DNA of 64,000 nt from Patescibacteria group bacterium (GTDB taxonomy: Bacteria; Patescibacteriota; Patescibacteriia; UBA2591; JAQWAS01), in NCBI GenBank assembly GCA_028707495.1, contig JAQWAS010000001.1, positions 48,382-112,381 on the forward strand. The letters are read 5' to 3'. The notes beneath the pieces were generated by a model. It was not told the DNA's origin, searched no databases, and saw only the letters and a list, made by a program, of their open reading frames with translations. This document shows, piece by piece, positions 6,620-31,988 of this stretch. The translations under genes and the position numbers were made by a program. The first letter of the stretch is position 1; every line of letters starts with the position of its first letter.

Positions 6620-7678
6620 ATGAAAAAAGTTAAACTTTTACCCTTTATTTTTTCAACGGTTATTGGAATTTTTTTATTTGTTTTTATTTTAATTAAAATT
6701 GGCGCTGGCAACATTATTGACACGTTGACTTTATTAAAGCCTATCCCTGCCTTATCAGCGGGTATCGTTTTTTTTATTATGGTGTGTTTGCAGAGTTTAC
6801 GTTGGAAAATAATTCTAAAAAATATGGGTTACCTTGTTAGTTTTGGAAAAATTTTTATGGCAAGAACATCTGGTTTTTCGGTTTCATATTTAACTCCCAT
6901 GAGTTTTTTTGGCGGTGAACCTTGGCGAGCTTATTTTTTAAAGCAAGAAGAGGGGATAGCTATTCATCAAAGTTTAAGCTCAATTTTTATTGAAAAAATT
7001 ATCGATTTATTAATGGGAGCTTTGTTATTTTTAATTTCTTTTTTTTATTTAATTACTCGACCCATTTCAGCCCAATTATTAATTATTAGTATTTTAATTT
7101 TAGCTGGCATCGTAGCTGTTGTTTTCTGGTTTTTTAAAAGTTTAAAAAATAGAAAAAGATTTATTAGTAAATTTACCAAATTAATTGGCTTGCACAAAAT
7201 TAAATATATTCAGGAGCGGAGTGATCGTTTACAACGCATCGAAGAAAATTTAAGTAATTTTTTTTGGCACCAAAGGAAAAATTTAATTGTCGTTTTTTTA
7301 ATTATGACTTTAGAAATAGTTTTATCTTTGATTTTATTTAAAATAATAATTTTAGCTCTCGGTTATGATTTAAATGTGATGCAATTAATTTTTTTACGTG
7401 CCATGACTATGGCGGCGACTTTAGTGCCAATTCCGGCAGCCTTAGGTATTTCTGAGGGGGGTAATATTTTGGCTTTTATCATTTTTGGAGTTAGCGCTTC
7501 GGTCGGTATGGCCTTTAGTTTATTAACTCGTTGTTTTTTTGTTATCGAAGTTATCATTGGTTTAATTTTCTTATCGCATTTTGGAATTAAATTAATTAAA
7601 AATTTATTTATTAAAATGTTTAATAATGGCAATGGCAACGGTAATGGTAACAATGGTAATGAAGACAGTAAGATTTAG
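6620..7678 (+). CDS. flippase-like membrane protein (UPF0104 / lysylphosphatidylglycerol synthase TM-region family), C-terminal NG repeat
   Basis: About 8 TM helices; typical MKK..LLPF start; C-terminus NGNGNGNGNNGN. Confidence 0.5.
   Translation: MKKVKLLPFIFSTVIGIFLFVFILIKIGAGNIIDTLTLLKPIPALSAGIVFFIMVCLQSLRWKIILKNMGYLVSFGKIFMARTSGFSVSYLTPMSFFGGEPWRAYFLKQEEGIAIHQSLSSIFIEKIIDLLMGALLFLISFFYLITRPISAQLLIISILILAGIVAVVFWFFKSLKNRKRFISKFTKLIGLHKIKYIQERSDRLQRIEENLSNFFWHQRKNLIVVFLIMTLEIVLSLILFKIIILALGYDLNVMQLIFLRAMTMAATLVPIPAALGISEGGNILAFIIFGVSASVGMAFSLLTRCFFVIEVIIGLIFLSHFGIKLIKNLFIKMFNNGNGNGNGNNGNEDSKI
7624..7660 (+). repeat. hexanucleotide microsatellite (aatggc/aatggt x6) encoding (NG)n tail
   Basis: Tandem aatggc aatggc aacggt aatggt aacaat ggtaat. 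Confidence 0.7.
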
Positions 7679-7756: not shown

Positions 7757-8170
7757 GTTAAGAATATAATTGAAGCGTTGATTTACGGGATTGCCACCTG
7801 CCTGCGGCGGGCAGGCGTCGTCGTCTGCCGAGTCGGCAGACTCCTCCTCGCAATGACACATACCTAAAGTGTCATACTGAACTTGTTTCAGCATCTGTTA
7901 GCGCCTAAAATGTTGATTCTTAAAAAATGTTTTTTTTCGACTACAGATCCTGAAATAAATTCAGGATGACAGAATAAATGTCATGCTGAACTCTAGTCCG
8001 CCAAATCGGAGGATGTTTCAGCATCTGTTAACAAAAGAAGTGTTATGCTGAACTTGTTTCAGCATCTGTAGTTGAGTTAAAATTTGTTATTTTAAATAGA
8101 CGTCATGAGTGTTTACAGATCCTGAAATAAATTCAGGATGACAATACAAAAATTCAGGATGACATCGATA
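7757..8170. repeat. hairpin-dense GC-rich repeat mosaic, left copy (core about 7794-7971)
   Basis: About 180-bp core about 97% identical to 17993-18169; contains nested perfect hairpins (gcctgc..gcaggc; ctgccga..tcggcag; atgacac..gtgtcat; atgctgaa..ttcagcat x3; atcctgaa..ttcaggat x2). Confidence 0.8.
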
Positions 8171-8176
8171 ATCAAC

Positions 8177-8210
8177 AAAAAGTGCAATATGTGTGTACAC
8201 ATTACCAATA
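8177..8210. mobile_element. solo IS-end remnant (matches terminus of IS at 51118-51153)
   Basis: caaaaagtgcaatatgtgtgtacacattacc is identical over 31 bp to the transposase-proximal end of the IS481-family element. Confidence 0.45.
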
Positions 8211-13267: not shown

Positions 13268-14263
13268 TTAAAATAAATTTCTTTGACGTTGTTTTAACTC
13301 TTCGGCTGGAATATTATTTAATTTACCAGTCATAACTAAACGAACATTGCGAATAGCATTTTTTTTAGCTAAATAATAGCCAACTAAAATTTCTGGGCCA
13401 TAGCCTATCCATTTAGTTTGTCGAACGAAATCAAGTTCCATATTTTCTAAATCTTTTTCTAATTCCGATAAATTTTGATGCTCTAAATAGTGATCAATAA
13501 AAATTGAAGCATCTTTAGAAAAATTATTTTTTATTTCAATTAAACCTTCTTCGAGTGGTTTTTCTACTAGACGAGCAAAATCATCTAAATCTAAACTACC
13601 TTTTTCTAAAATTTCAGAAACAATATATTCGGACGAGCGTTGCATACGCTTACCACGAATAAATATTTTAAGATTGGCAATATCTATTTGGAGTTTAATC
13701 AATTCTTGAATAAATTTGTTTTTTGTTTTTTGGCCTAAGGCATAAAGAGTTTCAAAATATTGCCAATCAGACCAACGATCAAGCCAATTTGGTTGAACCC
13801 CCTCAGTTTCAATTTTATTTTTAATATAATCAATCGCAAATTTTATTTCTGACGGTAACTCGTTTTTTGCGTCTTCTAAAATAACTTGTTTGAGCTTTGC
13901 AAAATTAACCACCCCCAAATCAGAAGCATAATCTTCGGTGTTTTTGTGACTATATTTTTCTTTAAACAAGAGTTTTATGTTTTGAAAATCATAGCGAATA
14001 AAAAGTATTTTTAACAAATTTTCATCTGGTACAATTTGAAAAAAAAGTTCGCGAACTTGTCTGAGATCATCTTGTAGAGCTTGGTTAAAATTTTTAACTG
14101 GCACATCTAAAAGATTATCGGCATAATCAGTATCATTAAAAACCCTAAAAGCCTGTTCGGCATCAGGAGCGTCGAGCATTCTTTCAAGTTCAGCTTGGTT
14201 TAAAAGCTTATTTTCTTTGGATCTAATTAGACCAGTTGCATAAAGATATTTACTTCGAGACAT
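13268..14263 (-). CDS. atpC: V/A-type ATP synthase subunit C
   Basis: 331 aa helical protein in conserved operon position. Confidence 0.75.
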   Translation of the reverse strand: MSRSKYLYATGLIRSKENKLLNQAELERMLDAPDAEQAFRVFNDTDYADNLLDVPVKNFNQALQDDLRQVRELFFQIVPDENLLKILFIRYDFQNIKLLFKEKYSHKNTEDYASDLGVVNFAKLKQVILEDAKNELPSEIKFAIDYIKNKIETEGVQPNWLDRWSDWQYFETLYALGQKTKNKFIQELIKLQIDIANLKIFIRGKRMQRSSEYIVSEILEKGSLDLDDFARLVEKPLEEGLIEIKNNFSKDASIFIDHYLEHQNLSELEKDLENMELDFVRQTKWIGYGPEILVGYYLAKKNAIRNVRLVMTGKLNNIPAEELKQRQRNLF

Positions 14264-14270
14264 GCAAAAA

Positions 14271-14837
14271 TTAGTTAAATAATGTTTTAGCTATTTTTTC
14301 CTCAGTTTCTTGTTGGGCACGTTTAATTATTTGTTCAAACGAATTATCAATGTTAATTTTGGGCGAAACAAAAATAAAGCCACCTTTGATTTTTTCATTT
14401 TCTTCGATTAATTCGAAATTGCGTTGACTTTGGTTAAGCGCCTGTTGGGTAAGTTTAACTTTATTTTTGGCTGGCTGAATTTGACCATTTTCAAGCTCTG
14501 GTAGATCATAAATCAATTGGCTAATCAGCTCAATATATTGTTTATCATTGAGTTCTAATAATTCATCTAAAGCCATTTTATAAACTTGATCAATAGTTTT
14601 TCTTTTTTTCTCTAAAATTTGAGCGTTGTTTTTTAATTTATTTTGAAACAACTCTTGATCGGCCAGTTTTTCAAGCTGTTGTTTTTTAGCGTCCAAGAGT
14701 ATCTTTTTTTTAGCTTCAATTTTAGTTTGATATTCTGTTTCAAGTTCTTTTGTTGTTTTTTTTGTTTCAGCTTCAATTTTTTTTATTTCAGCTTGAGTTT
14801 CTTGCTGAATTTTTTGAATAATATTTTGTAAAGACAT
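14271..14837 (-). CDS. atpE: V/A-type ATP synthase subunit E
   Basis: 188 aa; N-terminal coiled coil, then globular C-terminus. Confidence 0.75.
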   Translation of the reverse strand: MSLQNIIQKIQQETQAEIKKIEAETKKTTKELETEYQTKIEAKKKILLDAKKQQLEKLADQELFQNKLKNNAQILEKKRKTIDQVYKMALDELLELNDKQYIELISQLIYDLPELENGQIQPAKNKVKLTQQALNQSQRNFELIEENEKIKGGFIFVSPKINIDNSFEQIIKRAQQETEEKIAKTLFN

Positions 14838-14863
14838 AGATTAAATATGTTTGACTAAAATTA

Positions 14864-15352
<489 letters not shown>

Positions 15353-15392
15353 TTAATAATTATTAATTAAAAATTTAAATTTATAATATAAA

Positions 15393-17384
15393 TTAATTTT
15401 GATTTTCCGGTGTAGTAAATTGACCTTGTTTTTTAACTGGTTTAAAGCGCCGACCGCCACCTTCCATAAATTTAGGGAAAAATTCAACATATTGCAAGCG
15501 ACCAGAGTGAATAAATGAACCTAAGGCGTTGATGGCTAAATTAAAGATATGCCCACCAATCAAAATTAAAATAGCAATGGGCCAGCCGATAAAAGGAATC
15601 ATATCTTTAAATAACATGGCAATTAAATTAATTACCATGGCAATAATGCCAGTTGCCAAGCCGAGAGCGAGAATACGCGAATATGATAAAACATCGGATA
15701 AATAACCAACCAAGTCATATAAAGAGAGAATGCCTTGAGGAATTTTTAAAAATATATTTTTGGCGCGACGACCTTGAGTTAAAACAACAGCAGCTACACC
15801 AAGATAAACTAAATAAGTTGCTAATTGACTTAAGCTGGCGATTAATCCAACCTTAGTTAACATCCAAAACAAAATACTAAAAATAAAATATAACCAAATT
15901 GCACTGTCAAAAGATTGATCCCAATCTTTATTTTTTAAATTCCAATATAAATTCACAGCAATACCAACAACAACTTGTATAATTCCTAAAATTAACGAAA
16001 CAACTAGCATTTTTAAAGGTTCTTCGACTGGATTGATAATTCTAATTTTTAATAGAAAATTTCTGATTGGTTCTAAGGATGCTGGTAAATTTTCAAGAGT
16101 AATTCCAAACCAGCCACCTAAAATAGCTCCCATGATAAAAGTTGCTACGCCACCATAAATTAATAATTTGAAAAAGCCTCGTTTTTCTTTCGGAGTTTTT
16201 AAAACTTTCATAGCTAGAAAAGAAAATAAAGCTAAAATAATTCCATAGCCAGCATCACTTAAACACAAACCAAAGAAAATAATAAAAAATGGAGCTAAAT
16301 AGGGAGTTGGATCAACTTCGTGAGATTGAGGAGCTCCGTAGATATTAGTGACAGATTCAAAGGGTTGAACAAAGTTGGAATTACGCAAAACAACCGGCGG
16401 AGTTTCATTTTTTTCTAATTCAATTTTGACAATTTCAGTTTCACTTGAAATTTTATTTAATATTTTTTTTAAATTTTCAACGTGGCGACTTTCGATCCAG
16501 GCCGACAAGCCAAAGGTGTGCTGGGTTTTAGTTATTTGACTGTCAATAATCATTTTTTCTTTTTGCCAAAAAAAGTAATCATAAACAATTTTTAAATCAT
16601 CAAGATAGTGACCCAGATCTTGAATTTGATGTAAAATTTCTTGTTGTTTTTTTTCAGCTTGAATAATCTCTTTTTGAAGGTGTTGAATTGTTTCTTTAGG
16701 TTTTTGGTTTGGATAAATTAAATCAGCATGTTGAAAATCAAATTTTTTAAACAGTTCATCAATTTCTTTTTGAAGAGTTTTAAAATAAATAATTAAAATA
16801 TAATTTTCTTTTTCATCTTCTTTAATATTAATAACCTCAATCAGATCTTTATCTTTTTCAATTTCTTGTAAGAATAAGTCAAAATGTTTTTTGTTAATAA
16901 TGCCAATAGTTGAAATTGTTTTTTGAGTATCTTGAATACTTTGTGGTGGATAAATTAAATCTTGCCAAGGTTCTAATATTTTAATTTCACTTTGATATTT
17001 AATAATTAAATTATTGCATTGATTAAGGTTTTCATTTAAATTTTGTGTTTTTTCAACTAAATCTTGGTAGTCAAAACTAGATAAAATTTTATTTATTTTC
17101 GTTTGAGTGATCGGAATTTTAGGATTTAATAGGTTGTTTATTTTTTTCTGCCAGTTTTTTTCTTTGGGCTTATATTGTTCAATAAAATCGACGCCTGATT
17201 TTATTTGAGCTAATTTATAATCTAAATCAGAAATAACTTTATAGCTATATTGATCTTCTTGGTTTTCCAAATCTTTATTCGAAATAATTTCAAGCCAACC
17301 CAATTGATAAATTGTTTCAATAATTTTTTCTTGATGTTCAACGTGTCCGACTAAACATATTTTTTGGATAGGGGAGACAGCCAT
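15393..17384 (-). CDS. atpI: V/A-type ATP synthase subunit I/a
   Basis: 663 aa; soluble coiled-coil N-terminal half plus multi-TM C-terminal half. Confidence 0.85.
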   Translation of the reverse strand: MAVSPIQKICLVGHVEHQEKIIETIYQLGWLEIISNKDLENQEDQYSYKVISDLDYKLAQIKSGVDFIEQYKPKEKNWQKKINNLLNPKIPITQTKINKILSSFDYQDLVEKTQNLNENLNQCNNLIIKYQSEIKILEPWQDLIYPPQSIQDTQKTISTIGIINKKHFDLFLQEIEKDKDLIEVINIKEDEKENYILIIYFKTLQKEIDELFKKFDFQHADLIYPNQKPKETIQHLQKEIIQAEKKQQEILHQIQDLGHYLDDLKIVYDYFFWQKEKMIIDSQITKTQHTFGLSAWIESRHVENLKKILNKISSETEIVKIELEKNETPPVVLRNSNFVQPFESVTNIYGAPQSHEVDPTPYLAPFFIIFFGLCLSDAGYGIILALFSFLAMKVLKTPKEKRGFFKLLIYGGVATFIMGAILGGWFGITLENLPASLEPIRNFLLKIRIINPVEEPLKMLVVSLILGIIQVVVGIAVNLYWNLKNKDWDQSFDSAIWLYFIFSILFWMLTKVGLIASLSQLATYLVYLGVAAVVLTQGRRAKNIFLKIPQGILSLYDLVGYLSDVLSYSRILALGLATGIIAMVINLIAMLFKDMIPFIGWPIAILILIGGHIFNLAINALGSFIHSGRLQYVEFFPKFMEGGGRRFKPVKKQGQFTTPENQN

Positions 17385-20923: not shown

Positions 20924-23900
20924 ATGCATCAATTCAAAATTCAACAGGAGGGAAAAAATAGCAAAAGAGCAATTATTTTTATAGTTGTTTTTACTTTTTT
21001 AAACGTATTTTTAATTTCATCTATTTCGTCTGTTTTGGCTCAGACCCCCATCCAGAGCAAGAATTTGATAAATGGCTTAAGTTTCTCGGGTGATAATTTA
21101 AAACAGATTGCATCTAAATCAATTGAAATAAATAAAGTTCCGGGCATTTTAAAATATACCCCCAAATTGACAAATTTAAATCAAAATTTAAACGAAAGTC
21201 ATTTATTAATTAACAATATTAAAATAGATAAGCAGTCTTGGTCTAGTTTTAAATTAGATGATTATCGTAATTTTAAAGAATATAAAATACAGGGACGAGT
21301 TAATTTAGGAGATTTAGATTATAAAGTTTTTGATATTGCAAATCTTTCCACGGTTGAATCTGTGGTTTTTTCAGGAAAAGTCACGACATTTCCAATTTTA
21401 AAACCTGATGGTCAAAATTATGGTCATGGTTTCGCAAGGGTAATTTTAATTGGTCAAGATGAAAAGGGCAAAATTCGTGAATATGCAGTTTTAGATACTT
21501 CTCATTTTTATGCTGACAAATTTGATAATTCTAAAAATGAATATGATTTTAATATGATTGGGGATGAAGCCTTAGCTCTTCCAGGTTCAATTAAACCCTT
21601 GCATCTCGTTGTTGAGGGTAGTAATGTTGAAGTTAATTTTGAAAAAATTTATTATTCAACAACTAAAACTGGTCTTGATTTTAAGCAAGTTTTAAACGAA
21701 CAAAATGATGCTAAAATTAGAATGATTAACGAAAAAAATGAGAGGTTTGGTTATCACTGGGAAGCGGGGAATACTGGCATTTCACAAGAATCTTATGAGA
21801 TAAAAAAGGCTTATTTAGGAGACACAATGACTGGTCAATATGACTCGGTTAAAGTTTATAAGCCCATGCCAAACGCTGAGATAATTTATTATTCTGGAGG
21901 CGTTTTTTCTTTTGTGCCCATGGGAGAAATGACATATTCTTTACCCTCAAGACATTTAGAAGATTCGGGGTCTGCAATGCTTCCATCTTCTCCAACGGCT
22001 TTGCCGGCTGATTATGATAAAATAGAATTCTCATGGAGAGATGCGCATAACCAAGATTGGACAACATCAGTTAAAACCCAGGTTGGCGCAACGTGTTGGG
22101 CGTACGCAGCCACAGCAGCCCATGAACTAATGGTTAATACTTATTTTGCAAGGCATTTAGATAAAGATTTAAGCGAACAGCAGTTTATATCAAGAGGCGG
22201 AACAACCGACCCCATTTGTGGAGGGCAAGTTAATCCCGCAGAACAGGTTGCTTATACCCGCGGTCAGTTTGATGAGACATGTTTCCCAGCAACGGGTTTA
22301 TCTACAACACCTTGCAGTCCTTGTGCGGATTGGGATACGAGGGCATGGAAATCAACAACATATGAAAATTCAATAAATTACAGAAACCCTGTTGACTTAA
22401 TGAAGGATTTAAGAAGCAACGCAGGTATGGTTTTAGGATTAAACGAATGGAATCACGCAGTTAATCTTGTTGGAGCTGAAATATGGAGAGACGATTCGTC
22501 GCTTATTATGGAATATAAAAATTCCTGGGGCCCAACATGGGGAATTGACGGTTATGGTTATTTGTACGGTCCGATAGATATTGCAGTTTTTAATAAATGG
22601 GGTCACCCTGAAACTGCGGCTACAGGAGCGCCGACAACACAGCTTTGCACTGATGCAGACAGCGATGGTTATTGTTGGTGGGGATTAGGATCTAAACCTT
22701 CAACTGGTTGTCCAACTAGCTGTGCAGGAAACAGTGTTGCTGATTGCGACGATTCAGATGCAAATAAACAAGGCCTAGTTGATGGGTATATTTGTGCTGA
22801 CAATTCGGACGTGATTTCGTCATGTACAACAATTAACTCCCCTGGAACATATTATTTAAGTGGGGACATGTCAGCAAGCGGAAATTGCATTAACATTAAC
22901 AGTGATAATGTAGCTTTAACGTGCAGTGGCGCAACAATCACAGGAACTGGAACAGGAACCGGCATAAAGATTGATTCACAATCTGATGTTAGAATTTATG
23001 ATTGTAATTTAAATAATTTTAATATTGGTGTTGAAATTTTAAACTCAGACGGAGTAATGTTAGCTGATTCAAATGTAAGCAATTCAAATACAGGATTTAA
23101 AATAAACGGAAGTGAAAACGTGGTTGAAAAATATGGAATTTTAACTTCAAACGGAAAAGGTGTTGAATTAATTAATTCAAATAATAATTACATTTATCAA
23201 AACACATTCCAATCAAATACATACGGAATTTATTTAACTAATTCATTAAATAATGAATTTCAGGGAAATGTGATTAAAACATCAAGCAATACAGGATTTT
23301 ATGCAGATAGTGCAAGTGATAATAATGAGGTCGGAAATTTATATGCGTGTAGCTCGTCTGTTAAGGATATTAATGATCAAGGAACAAATGATTATTCTAT
23401 AACTGCGTGCGGTTCAGCCACGGGGACAACTTGCGATTATACATGTTCTGTTGGATGCACCAATTTATATTGGCCGGCAACATATCCAGGGGGAGATGCA
23501 TATTATCCAGAGAGAATTAGAGAGACATCAGAAGAAGGCAAGCATTATTTTATAATTGATGCTTATGGCGGGACAATTAATTTATGCGAAGATGGTTATT
23601 ATCCGTTGGATTATCCAACACAGCAAATCTTACTCGGAACTTACAATGTTGTAGTTGATTTTAAAAATTCAGAATTTGTCGGCAAAACAAGGGATTATGG
23701 CGATTATATTTTTGATCCGGGCGTATATCCGCCTTTTGGAAATTATCCATTAGTCCGCGAGGATTATGATGCTTGGTTTTCAAAAGGAACAATTAAGAAT
23801 ATGAAAATATCAAATGTTTCTACCGGCATAGCGCTGATGGGAACTTCGGGCTCAACAATAACAACCTGGGATAATATTCACTTTGAAAATGTTAAAGTTG

Positions 23901-26900
23901 GTGCTTATGCAAGAAATTTAAAAATAATTAATTCTAAATTTATAAATTGCGATGAATATGGGATTTACCTTTATGATGTGGAAGGAAACCAGTTGATTGT
24001 TGAAAATTCAGAATTTAAAAATATCGGAATTAATGGGATTTACACCAATGCAGTGTCAACAGTACAGGTAGGGGGAACTGGAACAACCGACATTGAAAAA
24101 GGAAATTATTTTGAAAATTGCAATAAAATTTATCTTGGAAGAGGTGATACAACTGGAACTGATAATATTCGGCATAATGTTTTAGTTGATACGGGGCTAG
24201 AAACTGAGCTTGAAAATGTTAATTTTATTAATAATAAAATTTTTAATTCTCCTTATTATGGCTTAAATGTTTCTACCTATTCGGCAGGGACTGTGGCGGT
24301 TCAAAATAATACAGTTTGCGGAAGTATCGGAACAAGAGACATATATGATTCGTCTACCAGAGGAACCTATTTAAACAATGCCTGTGGCTCATCAACACCA
24401 AGTGGATTATGTGTTTTTACTGGCAATACTTATTATCGGGATGTAGATGGTGATGGATATGGAAATCCGGACACAACACAAACAAGAGCATGTCCAACTG
24501 TGGGCTATATTTGGAGAGCTGGTGATTGTGATGATACTGATGTAGATGTTAATCCAGAGGGAGAAGAAGTTTGTGATAATAAAGATAATAACTGTGATGG
24601 GACAACAGACAACATACTAGAAGATTGTGGTTCTGGTGTTTGTATTGGAACTAAATTATGCACTGCCGGGATTTGGGGTGTTTGTTCATCTTCGGGAAAT
24701 GATGCAGGAGTTTGTGCAAAATGTAGTGATACTGGAATTGCAGTTTATGACGGAACGCAAAATATAGATTGTGATGATGGAGCATACTGTAACGGTACAG
24801 AAGTTTGTAGTGCAATTTATACATGTACCGCAGGCACACCGATAAATTGTTCAGTTAACAATTTAGACCCAATTGGAATGTGCATTTGGAATCCAGACGG
24901 AAACCCATTAACCTGGGATTATTTTGCTGGTTTTACATCTGCATGCAATGAAACAACCGATTCATGCACTTCAGGAACAGTTGAATTAACACACACTTGC
25001 GACGTAACTACTTGTGGCGCAGAATGTGACGCAACCCACGAATGTGAAGACAGTTCATGCGAAGAAACATACACCGATTATTGTGATGGTTTAAAATTAA
25101 CAGAATACAATTCAAATCTTATTTTAGATTCAATTTTAATTTCTGATTCATGCGAAAATATGTGTGGAGTAGATTGTGGATGTACCGATTGCGACACGGA
25201 TTGTTCTGCGCCAAGTACGAACACATATTGTGTGAAAGACGTGTGTGGCGCAGTTTGCGATTCGCACGATGATTGTGCGCCAACAGAATGTACACACTTA
25301 AGCGGTTGTGTGGGTAATGATTATTATGAATATTCAAACGTGTCCAATGATTGTACGGGTGGTTGTGCTTGCACAAGCAATGACTGTGGAATACCAATAA
25401 TCTATGAGTTTGATTCAAGATGTGTTGAATGTATGATTGATGACGACTGCAATTCTTATGATGCAGACTATTGTACAGGAAATTCAATCATGCATGATGA
25501 GGGTAGATGTTTAGGGTATGTATGCGAAACTGAAACAACAGAAACGCAAAATTGTAATTTATTAAACAATAATTATTGTTTAGGAACAGACATTATGCAA
25601 GATATTTACACATGTTCATTGGCAGTCTGTGTAATTGATGAAACAAATTTAATTGAAAATTGTAATGATGAATTATATTGTAATGGAGCAGAAACATGCG
25701 CAGATGCAATTTGTACCGCAGGCACACCGATAAATTGTTCAGTTAACAATTTAGACCCAATTGGAATGTGCATTTGGAATCCAGACGGAAACCCATTAAC
25801 CTGGGATTATTTTGCTGGTTTTACATCTGCATGCAATGAAACAACCGATTCATGCACTTCAGGAACAGTTGAATTAACACACACTTGCGACGTAACTACT
25901 TGTGGCGCAGAATGTGACGCAACCCACGAATGTGAAGACAGTTCATGCGAAGAAACATACACCGATTATTGTGATGGTTTAAAATTAACAGAATACAATT
26001 CAAATCTTATTTTAGATTCAATTTTAATTTCTGATTCATGCGAAAATATGTGTGGAGTAGATTGTGGATGTACCGATTGCGACACGGATTGTTCTGCGCC
26101 AAGTACGAACACATATTGTGTGAAAGACGTGTGTGGCGCAGTTTGCGATTCGCACGATGATTGTGCGCCAACAGAATGTACACACTTAAGCGGTTGTGTG
26201 GGTAATGATTATTATGAATATTCAAACGTGTCCAATGATTGTACGGGTGGTTGTGCTTGCACAAGCAATGACTGTGGAATACCAATAATCTATGAGTTTG
26301 ATTCAAGATGTGTTGAATGTGTTGATTTAGATGATGAAGAAACTTTCTTGGGTAGGGTTGTCAGATCGGGCGATTCTTATCTTATAAATGATGATATTAT
26401 GTTATGTTCTGGAACATACAATTTTGACGATACGGCATTAATAGCTAATAGCAATAATTTGATTATTGATTGTAATGATGCGGAATTGATTGGACAAGGG
26501 ATAAGGTCTGGATATTATATTGATAATTATTATGGAATTGAAATTAACAATAAAAATAATGTTATTATTAAAAATTGTCATATTGAAAATTTTATAAAGG
26601 GATCAGTAATTAATAATGTTCAGGGTGTTCAGTTTATTGATAATGAATTTATTAACAATACAGATGCGAGTATCTATGGTGAGATGAGTATTAACGATGT
26701 TTTAATTCAAGGAAATTATATTATTAACGATCCCTTGGCTTCATCAACTTATGGGATTCAATTACAAGATGTTTCTAATTCATTAATTATTGAAAACAAC
26801 GTGAGTCAAAATAGTCTTGGTATTTATCTTGGACCTGATTCTGAAAATAATAATATAACAAACAATTATTTAGAAAATAATTTTAATTCAGGAATTTCAT

Positions 26901-28372
26901 TAACTTTAGCAAATAATAATTTAATTAATGGAAATAATTTAGAAAGCAATAGTAAAGGAATCACTACGAGTTCTTGTTCTAATATTGATATTTACAATAA
27001 CACAAATTTATTTAGTGAAGATGTCGGAATTGAGATTTATCAATCGGATCTTTGTGAGGTAATTAATAATACAATTATTGACTCAGGATTTGGAATTAAG
27101 GTGGAAATGGGAAATGATAATTCTATATTAAATAATAATATAGACGGTTCTATGCAAGGTATCAAAATATCAAGAACGACAAATAATAATATTGAAGATA
27201 ATATAATTGATATTAATGCGGGTTATTTAGAAAACGCTTATAGTATTGATGTTAGTGTGGGAACTGATGAATTATACAATAATTGTAATAATATTATAAA
27301 AAGAAATACGGACTCAGCAGGAAAGCAGATTATTTATTTTAAAAATGATGATGATATTGAATCAATTTTACCCATGATAATAGAACCAATTACAGAACTC
27401 ATATTGTGTAATACAGATGATGTGGTTGTTGATGGTATAGAAATTGATGGAAGTAATATCGATGGTAATACTAATGGTGTGATTATTGAAAGCTCAGATA
27501 ATATCATTTTTAGAAATTCAAACATTATTAATAGTTATATTGGAATTAATATTAGAGAGTCTAAATTTAATTATTTTAATTTAAATCAAATTAATAACAA
27601 TAATTTCGGAATAATATTAACAATGTCAAGTGAAAATATAATTGAAAATAATAATATTTGTGACAATGAATTTGTTGATTTATTGATTGGAGAGGCGAGT
27701 AGCTATAACGATGGTGATAATATTTGCAATGACGTTATTTATGGATCTGGATTAGAATTATATAATACTATTGAATGTTCAACTAGTTGTTCAGAGGCAA
27801 GAGTTAAATTTTTACCACCTTTAGAAAAAATAAAAGATATGTTTGGTATTATTGAAAATAAAATTAAAAAAGTTATAGGTATTAAAGTAAAGCTGGGAAA
27901 TGGCAATGAGACTTCCAATACAAAAATAATAGAAGACAATCAAATCGTAGATGAAAATAATGGAAACATAATTAAACCAAAAACAGAAGATAATTTTGTC
28001 ACTATCAAAGAGGGGGTTAAAATAGAAGGGACAGAAATAATTTTTGAACATCAAGATAACAATGTTGTTTTAGATTTAGAAATTAAAGAGACGACAGAAC
28101 AAGAAAAATTATCAGACGGAGTTGTTGTGATTGAAGAAGAAAATAAAGAAATTAAAGAATCTGAAATTGGTTCGATAATTAAAAATAAAAATGTTGAAAT
28201 AATGCCGATAGAAGTTGTTAAAAAAGAAACAGAAATGGTGGTTGGTGAATTTATGTCAAGTTTTAAAAAAGATATTATTGAAATTAAACCAGAAATAACA
28301 TCGACCGACATTTTAATCACCACTAAAGAGGGCGTTAAAAAAATAGAGGATTTGGAAGTCGATAAGAATTAA
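20924..28372 (+). CDS. giant secreted multidomain protein (2482 aa): signal peptide, papain-like C1 cysteine protease, two parallel beta-helix repeat blocks, Cys-rich metal-binding-like modules, duplicated Cys-rich modules, E/K/I-rich C-terminal region
   Basis: C1 catalytic signatures QVGATCWAYA (Gln/Cys), NHAVNLVG (His), YKNSWGPTWGIDGYGY (Asn/Trp); beta-helix repeats such as NNNYIYQNTFQSNTYGIYLTNS; DVDGDGYGNPD..CDDTDVDVNPEGEEVCDNKDNNCDG. Confidence 0.85.
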   Translation: MHQFKIQQEGKNSKRAIIFIVVFTFLNVFLISSISSVLAQTPIQSKNLINGLSFSGDNLKQIASKSIEINKVPGILKYTPKLTNLNQNLNESHLLINNIKIDKQSWSSFKLDDYRNFKEYKIQGRVNLGDLDYKVFDIANLSTVESVVFSGKVTTFPILKPDGQNYGHGFARVILIGQDEKGKIREYAVLDTSHFYADKFDNSKNEYDFNMIGDEALALPGSIKPLHLVVEGSNVEVNFEKIYYSTTKTGLDFKQVLNEQNDAKIRMINEKNERFGYHWEAGNTGISQESYEIKKAYLGDTMTGQYDSVKVYKPMPNAEIIYYSGGVFSFVPMGEMTYSLPSRHLEDSGSAMLPSSPTALPADYDKIEFSWRDAHNQDWTTSVKTQVGATCWAYAATAAHELMVNTYFARHLDKDLSEQQFISRGGTTDPICGGQVNPAEQVAYTRGQFDETCFPATGLSTTPCSPCADWDTRAWKSTTYENSINYRNPVDLMKDLRSNAGMVLGLNEWNHAVNLVGAEIWRDDSSLIMEYKNSWGPTWGIDGYGYLYGPIDIAVFNKWGHPETAATGAPTTQLCTDADSDGYCWWGLGSKPSTGCPTSCAGNSVADCDDSDANKQGLVDGYICADNSDVISSCTTINSPGTYYLSGDMSASGNCININSDNVALTCSGATITGTGTGTGIKIDSQSDVRIYDCNLNNFNIGVEILNSDGVMLADSNVSNSNTGFKINGSENVVEKYGILTSNGKGVELINSNNNYIYQNTFQSNTYGIYLTNSLNNEFQGNVIKTSSNTGFYADSASDNNEVGNLYACSSSVKDINDQGTNDYSITACGSATGTTCDYTCSVGCTNLYWPATYPGGDAYYPERIRETSEEGKHYFIIDAYGGTINLCEDGYYPLDYPTQQILLGTYNVVVDFKNSEFVGKTRDYGDYIFDPGVYPPFGNYPLVREDYDAWFSKGTIKNMKISNVSTGIALMGTSGSTITTWDNIHFENVKVGAYARNLKIINSKFINCDEYGIYLYDVEGNQLIVENSEFKNIGINGIYTNAVSTVQVGGTGTTDIEKGNYFENCNKIYLGRGDTTGTDNIRHNVLVDTGLETELENVNFINNKIFNSPYYGLNVSTYSAGTVAVQNNTVCGSIGTRDIYDSSTRGTYLNNACGSSTPSGLCVFTGNTYYRDVDGDGYGNPDTTQTRACPTVGYIWRAGDCDDTDVDVNPEGEEVCDNKDNNCDGTTDNILEDCGSGVCIGTKLCTAGIWGVCSSSGNDAGVCAKCSDTGIAVYDGTQNIDCDDGAYCNGTEVCSAIYTCTAGTPINCSVNNLDPIGMCIWNPDGNPLTWDYFAGFTSACNETTDSCTSGTVELTHTCDVTTCGAECDATHECEDSSCEETYTDYCDGLKLTEYNSNLILDSILISDSCENMCGVDCGCTDCDTDCSAPSTNTYCVKDVCGAVCDSHDDCAPTECTHLSGCVGNDYYEYSNVSNDCTGGCACTSNDCGIPIIYEFDSRCVECMIDDDCNSYDADYCTGNSIMHDEGRCLGYVCETETTETQNCNLLNNNYCLGTDIMQDIYTCSLAVCVIDETNLIENCNDELYCNGAETCADAICTAGTPINCSVNNLDPIGMCIWNPDGNPLTWDYFAGFTSACNETTDSCTSGTVELTHTCDVTTCGAECDATHECEDSSCEETYTDYCDGLKLTEYNSNLILDSILISDSCENMCGVDCGCTDCDTDCSAPSTNTYCVKDVCGAVCDSHDDCAPTECTHLSGCVGNDYYEYSNVSNDCTGGCACTSNDCGIPIIYEFDSRCVECVDLDDEETFLGRVVRSGDSYLINDDIMLCSGTYNFDDTALIANSNNLIIDCNDAELIGQGIRSGYYIDNYYGIEINNKNNVIIKNCHIENFIKGSVINNVQGVQFIDNEFINNTDASIYGEMSINDVLIQGNYIINDPLASSTYGIQLQDVSNSLIIENNVSQNSLGIYLGPDSENNNITNNYLENNFNSGISLTLANNNLINGNNLESNSKGITTSSCSNIDIYNNTNLFSEDVGIEIYQSDLCEVINNTIIDSGFGIKVEMGNDNSILNNNIDGSMQGIKISRTTNNNIEDNIIDINAGYLENAYSIDVSVGTDELYNNCNNIIKRNTDSAGKQIIYFKNDDDIESILPMIIEPITELILCNTDDVVVDGIEIDGSNIDGNTNGVIIESSDNIIFRNSNIINSYIGINIRESKFNYFNLNQINNNNFGIILTMSSENIIENNNICDNEFVDLLIGEASSYNDGDNICNDVIYGSGLELYNTIECSTSCSEARVKFLPPLEKIKDMFGIIENKIKKVIGIKVKLGNGNETSNTKIIEDNQIVDENNGNIIKPKTEDNFVTIKEGVKIEGTEIIFEHQDNNVVLDLEIKETTEQEKLSDGVVVIEEENKEIKESEIGSIIKNKNVEIMPIEVVKKETEMVVGEFMSSFKKDIIEIKPEITSTDILITTKEGVKKIEDLEVDKN
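24824..25434 (+). repeat. perfect tandem duplication, copy 1 (611 bp, period 888 bp)
   Basis: Identical at every position I compared to 25712-26322; explains the two identical minus-strand phantom ORFs. Confidence 0.85.
25712..26322 (+). repeat. perfect tandem duplication, copy 2
   Basis: See copy 1. Confidence 0.85.
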
Positions 28373-28485
28373 AATTGTAAATAAAGTTTGGCAAGAATTT
28401 AAATTTATGTTAAGATAAAAGTATCAATTTTAAGTGTGTGGAAAAATAAAATTTATACTTATTAACACATATAATTTTAAAAGGG

Positions 28486-28514
28486 TTGACAAAAAAAAAT
28501 AAATAAATTATCAT
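28486..28514 (+). promoter_or_regulatory. candidate promoter TTGACA-N17-TATCAT for infA-rpmJ-rps operon
   Basis: Consensus -35; weaker -10. Confidence 0.35.
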
Positions 28515-28565
28515 TTAATAAATGTGTAAATGTTTTTTTACATTCAACACATTTTTAATTTTATT

Positions 28566-28799
28566 ATGGTACAAGAAACAACTTCTAAATCCAAAGAATA
28601 TTTAGAGCTAGATGGAGAAATTATTGAACTTTTACCAGCAACCAACTTTGAGATTGAATTAGAAAACGGGCAGACGATTCGAGCTTATTTATCTGGCAAG
28701 ATGAGAATGCATCGTATTCGTTTGGCAGTTGGCGATAAGGTAAAAGTAAAAATTAGTCCATACGATCTAGGAAAAGGTATTATTGTCTATCGTTATTAA
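28566..28799 (+). CDS. infA: translation initiation factor IF-1
   Basis: S1-like fold [47 protein letters not shown]; start at MVQETT. Confidence 0.85.
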
Positions 28800-28809
28800 T
28801 TTAAAATAC

Positions 28810-28923
28810 ATGAAAGTAAGAGCATCAGTTAAAAAAATTTGTAAAGATTGTAAAGTTATTCGACGCCAAGGTCGAGTGTGTGTTGTGTGTAAAAATCCTA
28901 AACACAAGCAACGCCAGAAATAG
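28810..28923 (+). CDS. rpmJ: 50S ribosomal protein L36 (37 aa; not in ORF track)
   Basis: [37 protein letters not shown], canonical L36 zinc ribbon. Confidence 0.85.
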
Positions 28924-28926
28924 GAA

Positions 28927-28956
28927 CAGTGAGTAGGGAGTAGCGGGTAGGTTGTA
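28927..28956. repeat. left arm of inverted repeat bracketing the four-helix-bundle gene (core gggtaggttgta)
   Basis: 12-bp perfect plus extended imperfect complementarity to 29384-29415. Confidence 0.7.
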
Positions 28957-28999
28957 AAGAAGAGAGAAATGATGAATTTTAAAAATAAAAAATATTATT

Positions 29000-29365
29000 A
29001 TGGAAAACCAAATAAGATCTTATAAAGATTTAATTGTTTGGAAAAAATCCATGGATTTAGTTGAGGCTATTTATAAATTAACACAGAATTTTCCACAGTC
29101 AGAAACTTATGGTTTAGTTTCTCAAATGAGACGGTGTGTTGTTTCCATCCCTTCAAATATTGCTGAAGGATGTAAACGCGGCACTAAAAAAGATTACAGA
29201 CAGTTTTTGATTATAGCCTATAGTTCAGGAGCTGAATTAGAAACTCAAATAGAAATTTCAAAAAGATTAAATTTTACAGAAACAATAAATTATATTAAAG
29301 TAGATGGTTTGTTGGATGAGATTATGCGTATGTTAAATACAATTATTGGCAAATTAAGTATTTAA
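29000..29365 (+). CDS. four-helix-bundle protein (23S rRNA intervening-sequence protein / bAvd-like, TIGR02436 family)
   Basis: YKDLIVWKKSMDLVEAIYKLTQNFPQSETYGLVSQMRRCVVSIPSNIAEG..SSGAELETQ matches the family closely. Confidence 0.75.
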   Translation: MENQIRSYKDLIVWKKSMDLVEAIYKLTQNFPQSETYGLVSQMRRCVVSIPSNIAEGCKRGTKKDYRQFLIIAYSSGAELETQIEISKRLNFTETINYIKVDGLLDEIMRMLNTIIGKLSI

Positions 29366-29383
29366 TTTTTATTACCTAATCAC

Positions 29384-29415
29384 TACAACCTACCCACTAA
29401 TCACTAATCACTAAC
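29384..29415. repeat. right arm of inverted repeat (tacaacctaccc + (actaatc)n)
   Basis: Reverse complement of 28945-28956. Confidence 0.7.
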
Positions 29416-29420
29416 AAAAA

Positions 29421-29810
29421 ATGGCAAGAATCGCAGGTATAAATTTACCACAAAATAAACGAGTTGAAATAGGTTTAACCTATATTTTTGGCATTGGCAA
29501 TGTGACCGCCAATAAAATTTTAAAACAAACCAAAATTGATCCCAGTACTCGGATTAAAGATTTAAATAATGACGAAGTTGAAAGTTTGAGACAGTTGATA
29601 GAAAAAAATTATCGTGTAGAGGGTGATTTAAGACGTGATATAGTTTTTAATATTAAAAGATTAAAAGAAATCAATTGTTATCGTGGCGAGCGACATAAAA
29701 GAAAATTACCAGCAAGAGGTCAAAGAACTAAAACTAATAGTCGCACAGTCCGTGGTAATGTTAGAAGAACTACTGTAAGTGGTCGAGCTAAAGCAGCTCA
29801 AAAAACCTAA
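29421..29810 (+). CDS. rpsM: 30S ribosomal protein S13
   Basis: [23 protein letters not shown]. Confidence 0.9.
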
Positions 29811-29822
29811 AATTTTTAAAAT

Positions 29823-30467
29823 ATGAAACAACAGATTCAAGATCAACAATTAGATAAAGATTTAAATAACGAAGAACAAACTTCAGAAGATTTAGCTGAA
29901 GATGTTAAAGTTGCAGATGCAGTGGACGCGGAGGAACAAGATAAAACAAAAACAGACGCCCAGGGAGAAACGGAAATTAAAGATGAAAAAGTAAAAGAAG
30001 AAGTTAAAGTTGAACAGGAAGTTAAAATTGAACCAGAATACAAAAAATTAAAAGCTCGTAAACGTGGTTCGGGTTCTTATAAAACTAAATTAGGTAAAAA
30101 ACGTAAAAAAGCGCATTTGCCAGTTAAAAGAGGTAAGGCTTATGTTTTCGCAACTTATAACAATACTCATATAACTTTAACTGACTTAGGCGGTAATGTA
30201 ATTGCCTCGGCTTCAGCTGGAGAATGTGGTTTTAAAGGACCAAAAAAAGCGACACCTTATGCTGCGGGTGTAATAGTTAAGACTGCGGTTGATAAAGCAA
30301 AGCAACGAGGCTTTGAAGAGGCGTCAGTATTTGTTAAGGGTGTGGGTTTAGGCCGTGAAGCTGCGGTCCGGAGTTTATATGCTAACGGAGTTAATATAGT
30401 TGCTATTAAAGACATCACTCCAGTGCCACATAACGGTTGTCGACCTAAAAAACCGCGACGCGTTTAA
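29823..30467 (+). CDS. rpsK: 30S ribosomal protein S11 with about 85-aa acidic/lysine-rich N-terminal extension
   Basis: Core AYVFATYNNTHITLTDLGGNVIASASAG..; extension E/K/D low complexity. Confidence 0.85.
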   Translation: MKQQIQDQQLDKDLNNEEQTSEDLAEDVKVADAVDAEEQDKTKTDAQGETEIKDEKVKEEVKVEQEVKIEPEYKKLKARKRGSGSYKTKLGKKRKKAHLPVKRGKAYVFATYNNTHITLTDLGGNVIASASAGECGFKGPKKATPYAAGVIVKTAVDKAKQRGFEEASVFVKGVGLGREAAVRSLYANGVNIVAIKDITPVPHNGCRPKKPRRV

Positions 30468-31154: not shown

Positions 31155-31988
31155 ATGGAAAATATTCCTTTACCTAGTCAAGTTACTATTAATCAGGACA
31201 AAAATGATAAAAATCAAGCTGAAATTGTTGTCGAACCTTGCTATCCTGGTTATGGCTTGACTTTAGGAAATTCTTTACGTCGAGTTTTGTTGTCATCTTT
31301 AAAAGGCACAGCTATTTATGCGGTTAAAATTAAAGGCGTAGCTCATGAATTTTCCGGCATTCAATATGTAAAAGAAGACGTGGTAGATATTATTTTAAAT
31401 TTAAAACAAGTCCATTTAAAATCTTTCACTGACGAACCCGTGGAATTAGAATTAAAAGTTAAAGGTAAAAAGAAAGTTACAGCTGGCGATATTAGTAAGA
31501 ATGCTCAAGTGGAAATTATCAATAAAGATTTAGTTATTGCGACTTTAACAGACGCTAAAGCTGATTTTGATATGAAAATTTGGGTTGATAGAGGCTTAGG
31601 TTATATTCTGGTTGAAGAGAAAAAAGATTTTAATGCTGAGGTTGGCGTGATCGGAGTAGATGCGATTTACACACCAGTTTTAAAATGTGGTTTTAATGTT
31701 GAAAATGTGCGTGTCGGTGATCGTACCGATTATGATAAAATAATCTTTGATTTAGAAACTGACGGGACAATTACACCAGAAAACGCTTTTAATAAAGCGG
31801 CTGGAATTTTAGTCAGACAATTTGGCTTCATTTTAGATGCTACTCAGGGCGAGGATGTTAAGGAAATTAAAATTAAAAAAGAAAATGAAGACGTTGAAGA
31901 AGCTGAAGAAGTCGAAGAAAAAGAAGCCGAAAAGAAAACCAAAAAGATAGCCAAAGAAAAAGCCACTAATAAAAAAACCAAAAAATAA
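31155..31988 (+). CDS. rpoA: DNA-directed RNA polymerase alpha subunit; short form with K/E-rich tail in place of a canonical alpha-CTD
   Basis: NTD motifs EPCYPGYGLTLGNSLRRVLLSSL; total 277 aa; last about 50 aa low-complexity EEAEEVEEKEAEKKTKK. Confidence 0.85.
   Translation: MENIPLPSQVTINQDKNDKNQAEIVVEPCYPGYGLTLGNSLRRVLLSSLKGTAIYAVKIKGVAHEFSGIQYVKEDVVDIILNLKQVHLKSFTDEPVELELKVKGKKKVTAGDISKNAQVEIINKDLVIATLTDAKADFDMKIWVDRGLGYILVEEKKDFNAEVGVIGVDAIYTPVLKCGFNVENVRVGDRTDYDKIIFDLETDGTITPENAFNKAAGILVRQFGFILDATQGEDVKEIKIKKENEDVEEAEEVEEKEAEKKTKKIAKEKATNKKTKK

Follow-up and report, generated by a model that had tools for sequence, protein, structure and literature searches.

A four-helix-bundle gene enclosed by inverted heptamer arrays between rpmJ and rpsM of a Patescibacteria ribosomal-protein operon: a probable intervening-sequence-type cassette

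Between the ribosomal-protein genes rpmJ and rpsM of a low-G+C (∼32%) genome of the Patescibacteria (candidate phyla radiation, CPR) lies a 485-nt cassette, described here from a 64,000-nt stretch of contig JAQWAS010000001.1 (the window, whose positions are used throughout unless another locus is named). The cassette (28928-29412, + strand) consists of a stem formed by an inverted repeat and a 427-nt loop, which contains the gene of a 121-amino-acid four-helix-bundle (4HB) protein (29000-29365, + strand). Our preferred reading, to which we assign a probability of roughly 60%, is that of an intervening sequence (IVS)-type cassette, with the 4HB gene in the loop of a stem built of inverted heptamer arrays, that has been inserted into the rpmJ-rpsM spacer of an mRNA operon. 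Sequence comparisons showed that the design of a gene between inverted heptamer arrays recurs in most homologs and in several phyla, including in a bona fide IVS of a 23S rRNA gene, and homologous cassettes are co-oriented with their neighbors inside operons, flush with the adjoining stop and start codons. Cleavage of the stem, mobility of the cassette, and the function of the protein are hypotheses.

The first-pass annotation of the window pointed to a 12-nt inverted repeat around the gene, and this repeat is present: GGGTAGGTTGTA occupies 28945-28956 and its exact reverse complement 29384-29395. The imperfect complementarity suspected beyond it extends to arms of 29 nt (28928-28956 and 29384-29412, + strand), which are 86% complementary and separated by 427 nt. 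Absent from that annotation is the heptamer structure of the arms. The left (5′) arm reads TAGGGAG TAGCGGG TAGGTTG TAAAG, following the pattern (NNNNTAG)n, with a chain of three TAG units (28934-28950) and a chain of four GTA units (28933-28956). The right (3′) arm lies within six CTANNNN units (29376-29413), for which Tandem Repeats Finder (TRF) gave a period of 7 and 5.6 copies. With at least three head-to-tail units in a spacer, the arms qualify as tandem heptamer arrays of the class described as short tandemly repeated repetitive (STRR) sequences or long simple sequence repeats (LSSR).

Inside the loop, the gene is preceded by a leader (28957-28999, + strand) that opens with the purine-rich AAGAAGAGAGAAA (28957-28969) and is A/T-rich from there to the ATG. 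The cassette fills the whole rpmJ-rpsM spacer: the left arm begins 5 nt past the rpmJ stop codon, and the right arm ends 8 nt short of the rpsM ATG. The rpmJ stop is itself a TAG (28921-28923), nearly in register with the heptamer array, and by their coordinates it and the left arm together cover each of the three frames with a TAG over a span of 28 nt. On the minus strand, the right arm likewise has a TAG in every frame. A unit made of a TAG array followed by a CTA array reads alike on both strands, and translation arriving from either side would therefore be stopped.

Exact inverted 12-mers within 600 nt of each other are, on their own, nothing unusual, with 10 G/C-containing matches (∼6 distinct pairs) in the window compared to ∼4 in a Markov simulation. 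The extended arm score was equalled by one other pair in the 64-kb window and in none of 40 simulated windows. The proposal that the flanking transcript closes a long stem around the open reading frame (ORF) held up when 28915-29425 was folded as a 511-nt RNA: the long-range stem is present in both the minimum free energy (MFE) and the centroid structure (z = −4.9), and none of 100 shuffled sequences folded as well. Joined by a short loop, the two arms alone gave −34.5 kcal/mol (z = −5.9). The arms are real and non-random. In the predicted fold the base of the stem also pairs with the translation-initiation region of rpsM (about −19 to −9). No strong or convincing promoter was found in a promoter scan of the cassette, and an intrinsic terminator was rejected, as the right arm is followed by AACAAAAAATG and a terminator scan of the cassette was negative. 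Further copies of the arms or of the gene were found nowhere else in the window. The sole other pair that scores like the cassette arms is an inverted repeat at 7940-7971 and 8041-8072; the intergenic region 7880-8180 contains three copies of the motif gaacttgtttcagcatctgt and two of acagatcctgaaataaattcaggatgaca, and has no Rfam match.

The 121-amino-acid protein (pI 8.9) is a full member of the PF05635/TIGR02436 family (“23S rRNA intervening sequence protein”, S23p), to which it had been assigned at first sight, scoring 133.5 bits against PF05635 (cut-off 33.8) and 129.3 bits against TIGR02436 (cut-off 24). An identical protein from a metagenome-assembled genome (MAG) of the Patescibacteria group is on record as “four helix bundle protein”, and the crystallised homolog XCC0516 (PDB 2GSC) is matched with E = 1.6e-25. 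The AlphaFold model, which was built as a monomer only, has a predicted local distance difference test (pLDDT) score of 90.4 and helices at residues 8-28, 37-58, 63-88, and 99-120. Foldseek aligned this model to 2GSC with a template modelling (TM) score of 0.84 and to PDB 2RLD (BT_0352) with 0.77. PDB 2GSC contains five chains, and a pentamer has been described for the family in the literature. The motif RxxxSxxxNxxE(G), represented by R45-S49-N53-E56-G57, is invariant across an alignment of 29 homologs, while the first glycine of the published family motif GxxRxxxSxxxNxxE (PMC3936711) corresponds to Q42 in the window protein. Identity among homologs is 0.68, 0.77, and 0.42 at the first, second, and third codon positions, a coding pattern of conservation that shows the protein to be under purifying selection in Patescibacteria. 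At E ≤ 1e-3 the family comprises 20,956 clusters at 50% identity. We know of no function for any PF05635 member, and for this reason none can be transferred to the window protein.

The closest homologs of the gene were examined at 80 genome loci (60-72% identity, almost all from Patescibacteria), and counts were made on the 79 genes whose flanks were complete, among them that of the window. TAG and CTA chains were counted as at least three units at 7- or 8-nt steps, as units of both lengths are mixed and a strict 7-nt chain undercounts them. A TAG chain lies upstream of 64 of the 79 genes and a CTA chain downstream of 50, with at least one of the two at 70; the opposite-motif controls gave 1 and 0, and ∼1% of other 150-nt windows carry such chains. 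Complementarity of the arms was scored by local alignment of the upstream flank to the reverse complement of the downstream flank. It exceeded the 95th percentile of shuffles in 59/79 loci and the maximum of 632 shuffles in 52/79. RNA duplex energies of 120-nt flanks were uninformative, being large for shuffled flanks too. Among loci, the heptamers differ in their variable 4-5 nt (CTTG, CTTTT, GTTG, TTTG, TGAG, and others), and the Jaccard overlap of heptamer words is 0.22 within a locus versus 0.044 between loci. Arm words thus vary by locus yet match within it, so that complementarity has been kept while the sequence changed.

The position of these cassettes is as regular as their arms. Both neighbors are co-oriented with the 4HB gene at 64/79 loci, and the upstream neighbor at 74/78. 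Median gaps are 42 nt on the upstream side, to the stop codon, and 27 nt on the downstream side, to the start codon. TAG is the stop codon of the upstream gene in 53/74 cases, compared to 21/64 for downstream genes, and in 39 of 62 loci this stop is itself a unit of the TAG array; from the last CTA to the start codon that follows, the median distance is 4 nt. The neighbors fall into 114 clusters of diverse housekeeping genes without a constant partner. Two contexts recur, corA-4HB-cysS nine times and one PrgI context six times, and the rest are singletons. Among the leading families of 154 neighbor genes there is no transposase, integrase, or reverse transcriptase. In 16 atypical Patescibacteria loci the gene was in no case inside an rRNA, and a tRNA follows it in two.

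The same loci also contain ORF-less TAG...CTA hairpins. Loop lengths are bimodal, at 7-128 nt for the ORF-less hairpins and 352-545 nt for those loaded with a gene, and a period of 7-8 is the dominant class of tandem array both in the 4HB loci and in a second set of loci collected around S13. In some MAGs, TAGCTTG-type arrays are scattered at a density of several per 8 kb, in addition to those that flank the 4HB gene (loci L017, L010, L023, and L063); in L017 the arrays lie at 168-184, 2340-2378, 2974-2997, and 6719-6750.

Outside the Patescibacteria, 16 plasmid homologs were compared. Arrays of 7-8 nt flank the gene on at least one side in 13 of them and strong inverted arms in 10, and the design was seen on plasmids of Cyanobacteria, Bacteroidota, and Gemmatimonadota, with arm words that include GGGAACA, GGTGACA, GGGAAAA, GGAGATA, AAGGTTT, and the 8-mer GAGGGCAG. 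Several of these homologs lie within cas operons, in the orders cas6-4HB-cas4 and cas10/cmr2-4HB-cmr3, with heptamer arrays on their flanks, and such insertion probably explains the listing of 23S_rRNA_IVP as CRISPR-associated. The cas-operon loci come from Pseudanabaena (L162), Anabaena sp. 90 (L168), and Picosynechococcus (L164). On three Nostoc plasmids (L163, L171, L173), near-identical 4HB genes immediately follow transposase genes of the ISL3/IS204 family or lie beside other transposases, with CTTCTGC heptamers downstream, and the gene may there be riding within or beside insertion sequence (IS) elements.

One of the 16 plasmid homologs, on Azospirillum lipoferum plasmid AZO_p2 (L176), lies inside a genuine 23S rRNA gene (912 bits against Rfam LSU), the kind of location in which the first-pass annotation had suggested looking for the same repeat-bracketed gene. 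This 469-nt IVS (region 535-1022 of that locus) contains a 4HB ORF between 36-nt arms that are 86% complementary and 397 nt apart. The arms are built of GACAGAG/GACGGAG heptamers, for which register-shifted alternative pairings are possible, and the geometry of this IVS is essentially that of the window cassette. The published IVS of Coxiella is similar, with a length of 428-444 nt, a 28-bp stem cut by RNase III at its middle, and an S23p ORF (PMC4990558). Three GACAGAT heptamers, whose copy number varies among strains, precede the ATG, and a putative AGAAGA Shine-Dalgarno-like element lies at the same relative place as the purine-rich stretch of the window cassette; the Coxiella ORF is decaying and probably untranslated (PMC4990558). 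These two IVSs share geometry, ORF family, and heptamers with the window cassette, which speaks for the first-pass suggestion that the element is IVS-like.

The rpmJ-rpsM junction was also examined in 77 metagenomic relatives, all of them distant lineages with S13 proteins 59-70% identical to that of the window. The 4HB gene was at the junction in 0/77, and the inverted arms accompany 59 of the 79 homologs at their own sites; a gene carried at this junction by all relatives without flanking inverted repeats, the outcome that the first-pass annotation thought would speak against a cassette, was thus not what we found. The median spacer of the relatives is ∼21 nt, compared to 497 nt in the window, and most have spacers of 3-30 nt and no hairpin. 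In at least 12 of the 77, the junction contains either ORF-less hairpins made of 7-8-nt repeats or a CTA or TAG array on its own; five of the seven junction hairpins that were folded are significant (z of −3.4 to −7.4), and eight of the 13 arrays with a period of 7 or 8 in the S13 loci map here. The junction appears to be a preferred site. The relatives with repeats there include L081, L082, L095/L096, L110, L112, L123, L124, L129, L132, L134, and L146.

From these observations a mechanism can be proposed. The cassette, without a promoter or terminator of its own, would be co-transcribed with infA, rpmJ, rpsM, and the genes that follow from a promoter-like site upstream of infA (TTGACA-17-TATCAT; 28486-28514, + strand). 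This site is a consensus match only; it agrees at 11 of 12 consensus positions and is the best in 28300-30000, in a region where promoter-like sites are in total no more numerous than expected from shuffling. Once transcribed, the arms would pair into a stem of ∼29 bp (25 pairs), a likely substrate of RNase III as in rRNA IVSs, and the cut would free the 4HB mRNA and split the infA-rpmJ RNA from the rpsM-rplQ RNA. The left arm, with a TAG in every frame, is predicted to halt any ribosome that enters the element, and for this reason a cassette can abut or even supply the stop codon of the upstream gene. The base of the stem would bring the rpmJ stop beside the rpsM start, and a ribosome terminating at rpmJ may open the stem base and free the rpsM initiation region, which would make the insertion almost neutral to the operon. 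The 4HB pentamer may bind the repeat stem of its own cassette, in analogy to the accessory variability determinant (Avd) of diversity-generating retroelements (DGRs).

Several observations weigh against this account or limit its reach. The 80 Patescibacteria loci are the closest homologs and not a sample of the whole family, and about a quarter of them have no significant arm complementarity. The TAG core is lineage-specific, as GGGAACA, GGAGATA, and GAGGGCAG contain no stop codon, and in the Pseudanabaena homolog the arrays are direct (CTAAAAG ×14 and CCAAAAG) and not inverted. At the window locus, the 25 pairs of the stem are interrupted by four 1 × 1 mismatches (three G·A and one C·A), and the 64-kb window shows no signature of the RNase III gene (rnc). 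With S13 identities of only 59-70% to the nearest relatives, no date can be given to the insertion. Within-genome paralogs are 57-76% identical in nucleotide sequence and there has therefore been no recent transposition burst; orthologous copies look vertically inherited, and mobility, as far as the sequences tell, has not been recent. The antisense strand of the cassette folds just as well as the sense strand, because any inverted repeat must do so, and arm mismatches comprise 36 sense-strand G:U versus 41 A:C, which is no excess. With no G:U excess and equal folding of the antisense strand, complementarity could be kept at the level of DNA and not by selection on the RNA, and the G:U versus A:C test could not separate the two.

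This last point leads to the alternative that survives best, in which the cassette works at the DNA level, as a mobile or recombination element that lacks a transposase, its arrays serve as terminal inverted repeats or portable homology, and the RNA stem is a by-product. Recombination, for instance following natural transformation, could then have copied the gene into heptamer hairpins without an ORF that were already in place at other junctions. We consider this unlikely, if still a serious candidate. The absence of a wobble bias toward sense RNA fits it, as do the ORF-less hairpins in the same genomes with their bimodal loop sizes, the repeat hairpins and solo arms at the same rpmJ-rpsM junction in other lineages, the many distinct insertion sites, and the prevalence of period 7-8 among the tandem arrays of these genomes. 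Many loci and genomes moreover share the most frequent arm words (TAGCTTG, TAGCTTTT, and others), and complementarity between arms of different loci is above the shuffled level. Against it, no target-site duplication is seen, the outer flanks of the arms sharing only the 3-nt AAC, and neither the 17 ORFs scanned around the window cassette (13268-41158) nor the leading families among the neighbors of the Patescibacteria homologs include a transposase, integrase, or reverse transcriptase, though an enzyme may act in trans. Copies within a genome are old, orthologs look vertically inherited, and a purely DNA-level element offers no obvious reason for co-orientation with the upstream gene at 74 of 78 loci.

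A wider view, which goes beyond the IVS-type cassette and which we regard as quite doubtful, would take the 4HB gene and its inverted arrays as an autonomous, transposase-less element of transcribed DNA, resident in RNA-coding genes and operon spacers throughout the bacteria. The pentamer would recognise its own stem, much as Avd does a stem-loop in DGR RNA, and the element would spread by arm homology or through an RNA intermediate. The arms would provide stops in all frames and a stem that functionally re-joins the interrupted host RNA, which would allow residence at near-zero cost in rRNA helices, cas operons, and ribosomal-protein operons. If this were true, the classical rRNA IVSs would be the rRNA-resident minority of a much larger class.

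A regulatory role for the host has also been considered. The stem could be a device of the rpsM (alpha) operon leader, acting by translational coupling or by masking of rpsM or as a site of mRNA processing or stability, with the 4HB gene as incidental cargo. The pairing of the rpsM initiation region with the stem base is in keeping with this, and so are the repeat-built, in part significantly folded hairpins in the same spacer of at least 12 of the 77 lineages and the concentration of the period-7/8 arrays of the S13 loci at this junction. These hairpins differ wholly in sequence among lineages, though, and most relatives manage with short, hairpin-less spacers; moreover, the same cassette design recurs at more than 60 unrelated junctions and inside rRNA, and the stem is for that reason not specific to the rpsM operon. 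On balance we find such a device distinctly improbable.

The label “bAvd-like”, given to the protein in the first pass, is apt for its fold only, and a reading of the gene as the Avd of a DGR or as a DGR remnant was rejected. The AlphaFold model aligns to Avd with TM 0.71-0.74 at 13% identity, and weak matches were obtained to PF22296 (bAvd; 34.5 bits) and NF033474 (DGR Avd; 26.4 bits), both of which fall short of the curated cut-offs (40 and 80). The 17 ORFs scanned (13268-41158) include no reverse transcriptase, nor do the leading neighbor families of the homologs, and the cassette arm sequences have no other copy in the window. With scores below the cut-offs and no reverse transcriptase in the scanned ORFs, the DGR identity is effectively refuted. 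A chance match in AT-rich intergenic DNA, which the frequency of exact 12-mer repeats alone would allow, is refuted by an extended arm score absent from all 40 simulated windows, fold z-scores of −4.9 and −5.9, and a geometry that recurs in most homologs.

The surroundings of the cassette are those of the ribosomal-protein operon named in the first-pass annotation. On the + strand the order is a 2482-amino-acid ORF, infA, rpmJ, the 4HB gene, rpsM, rpsK, rpsD, rpoA, and rplQ. Profile matches identified initiation factor IF-1 (infA, 28566-28799, + strand; Pfam), L36 (rpmJ, 37 amino acids, 28810-28923, + strand; PF00444, 68.5 bits), S13 (rpsM, the first gene downstream of the cassette, 29421-29810, + strand; PF00416, 104.5 bits), and S11 (rpsK), and rpsD, rpoA, and rplQ are named from their translations only. 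The rpsK ORF (29823-30467, 214 amino acids) has an N-terminal extension of ∼85 amino acids that is acidic and lysine-rich, and rpoA (31155-31988) has a K/E-rich C-terminal tail. Upstream, infA is preceded by the giant surface-protein ORF (spacer 28373-28565) and not by secY-adk-map. This 2482-amino-acid ORF (20924-28372, + strand) contains Beta_helix, NosD, and MopE-type domains and an apparent exact internal tandem duplication of ∼888 nt, with an identical 18-mer array at 25110 and 25998; in its translation a cysteine-rich block of ∼296 amino acids is present twice. A V-type ATPase cluster with subunit I, the c proteolipid, E, and C/AC39 lies at 13268-17384 (− strand). Across the whole window, Rfam at gathering thresholds found no family and no rRNA, ARAGORN found no tRNA, and PADLOC gave no meaningful match to a defence system.

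rRNA IVSs and their S23p ORFs have been known since ∼1990, and to our knowledge there is no accepted account of their origin or function. What appears to be new is the picture, drawn from sequence comparison, of the 4HB family as a unit with matched inverted 7-8-nt arrays that occurs across phyla, in mRNA operons as well as in rRNA. Our literature searches found no paper that generally ties the family to flanking heptamer arrays, except for the observation in Coxiella of heptamers upstream of S23p (PMC4990558). The association links three topics, namely IVSs, bacterial heptamer repeats (STRR, TAACTGA, GGGAATC), and the “CRISPR-associated” 23S_rRNA_IVP genes. 4HB genes in cas or ribosomal operons would accordingly be read as inserted cassettes and not as partners of their neighbors. 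Some questions are raised by this picture: does the stem serve as an RNase III site in mRNA, is the repeat stem bound by the pentamer, and do the all-frame stops make the insertion neutral?

Among known systems, repetitive extragenic palindromes and bacterial interspersed mosaic elements (REP/BIME) and transposable elements of the miniature inverted-repeat type (MITEs) resemble the cassette as dispersed intergenic inverted repeats in operons that are transcribed as stem-loops. The cassette differs from them in arms made of tandem short units with copy-variable sequence, in a conserved protein-coding cargo, and in that no target-site duplication is seen. The arms themselves belong with the bacterial heptamer repeats: cyanobacterial STRR, TAACTGA, and GGGAATC repeats are likewise 7-nt tandem units in intergenic spacers that often abut start codons and overlap upstream stops. 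TAACTGA repeats occur in Beggiatoaceae, cyanobacteria, and Bacteroidetes, where their stop codon in all three frames has been noted (PMC4679880), and the GGGAATC repeats of Xanthomonas form 70-75 convergent inverted pairs capable of folding into stem-loops (PMC4692102). The cassette is distinct from this class in that a matched inverted pair of arrays encloses a 4HB gene, and a text search of the main text of both papers found no mention of the 4HB/IVS-protein family.

Two known proteins can also be compared with that of the window. XCC0516 of Xanthomonas campestris, the homolog crystallised as PDB 2GSC, follows bccP at a distance of 6 nt in the region XCC0516-XCC0517; four GGGAATC units overlap its start codon, and it is listed only as “conserved” in the table of such repeats (PMC4692102 supplementary table). 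It resembles the window gene in sequence and fold, in its place at an operon junction, and in its heptamer array, whereas its heptamer word, GGGAATC, differs from the words of the window arms. Avd (PDB 4DWL and 8UB7) shares the four-helix-bundle fold. As a basic barrel of five protomers, all of which take part, it binds an RNA stem-loop beside its own gene, and it stands apart from the window protein in its 13% identity, in Avd models that score the window protein below their cut-offs, and in its association with a reverse transcriptase and a pair of template and variable repeats (TR/VR), neither of which was found near the window gene.

The closest counterpart is the rRNA IVS with an S23p ORF, as in Coxiella and on Azospirillum plasmid AZO_p2; Leptospira also bears such IVSs in its 23S rRNA. 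The ORF family is that of the window cassette, the elements are of like size (430-490 nt), the ORF is enclosed by a terminal stem of 28-36 bp whose 5′ arm consists of, or adjoins, tandem heptamers, and a purine-rich stretch precedes the ATG. The Coxiella ORF is decaying, whereas the window ORF is intact and belongs to a family that is under purifying selection in Patescibacteria, and RNase III cleavage is proven for the Coxiella IVS, whereas the window stem is a predicted substrate only. The hosts differ as well, being helix 9, 25, or 45 of the 23S rRNA for the IVSs and a spacer of ribosomal-protein mRNA for the cassette. Because it does not reside in rRNA, we file the window element as an IVS-type cassette in an mRNA context and not as an rRNA IVS.

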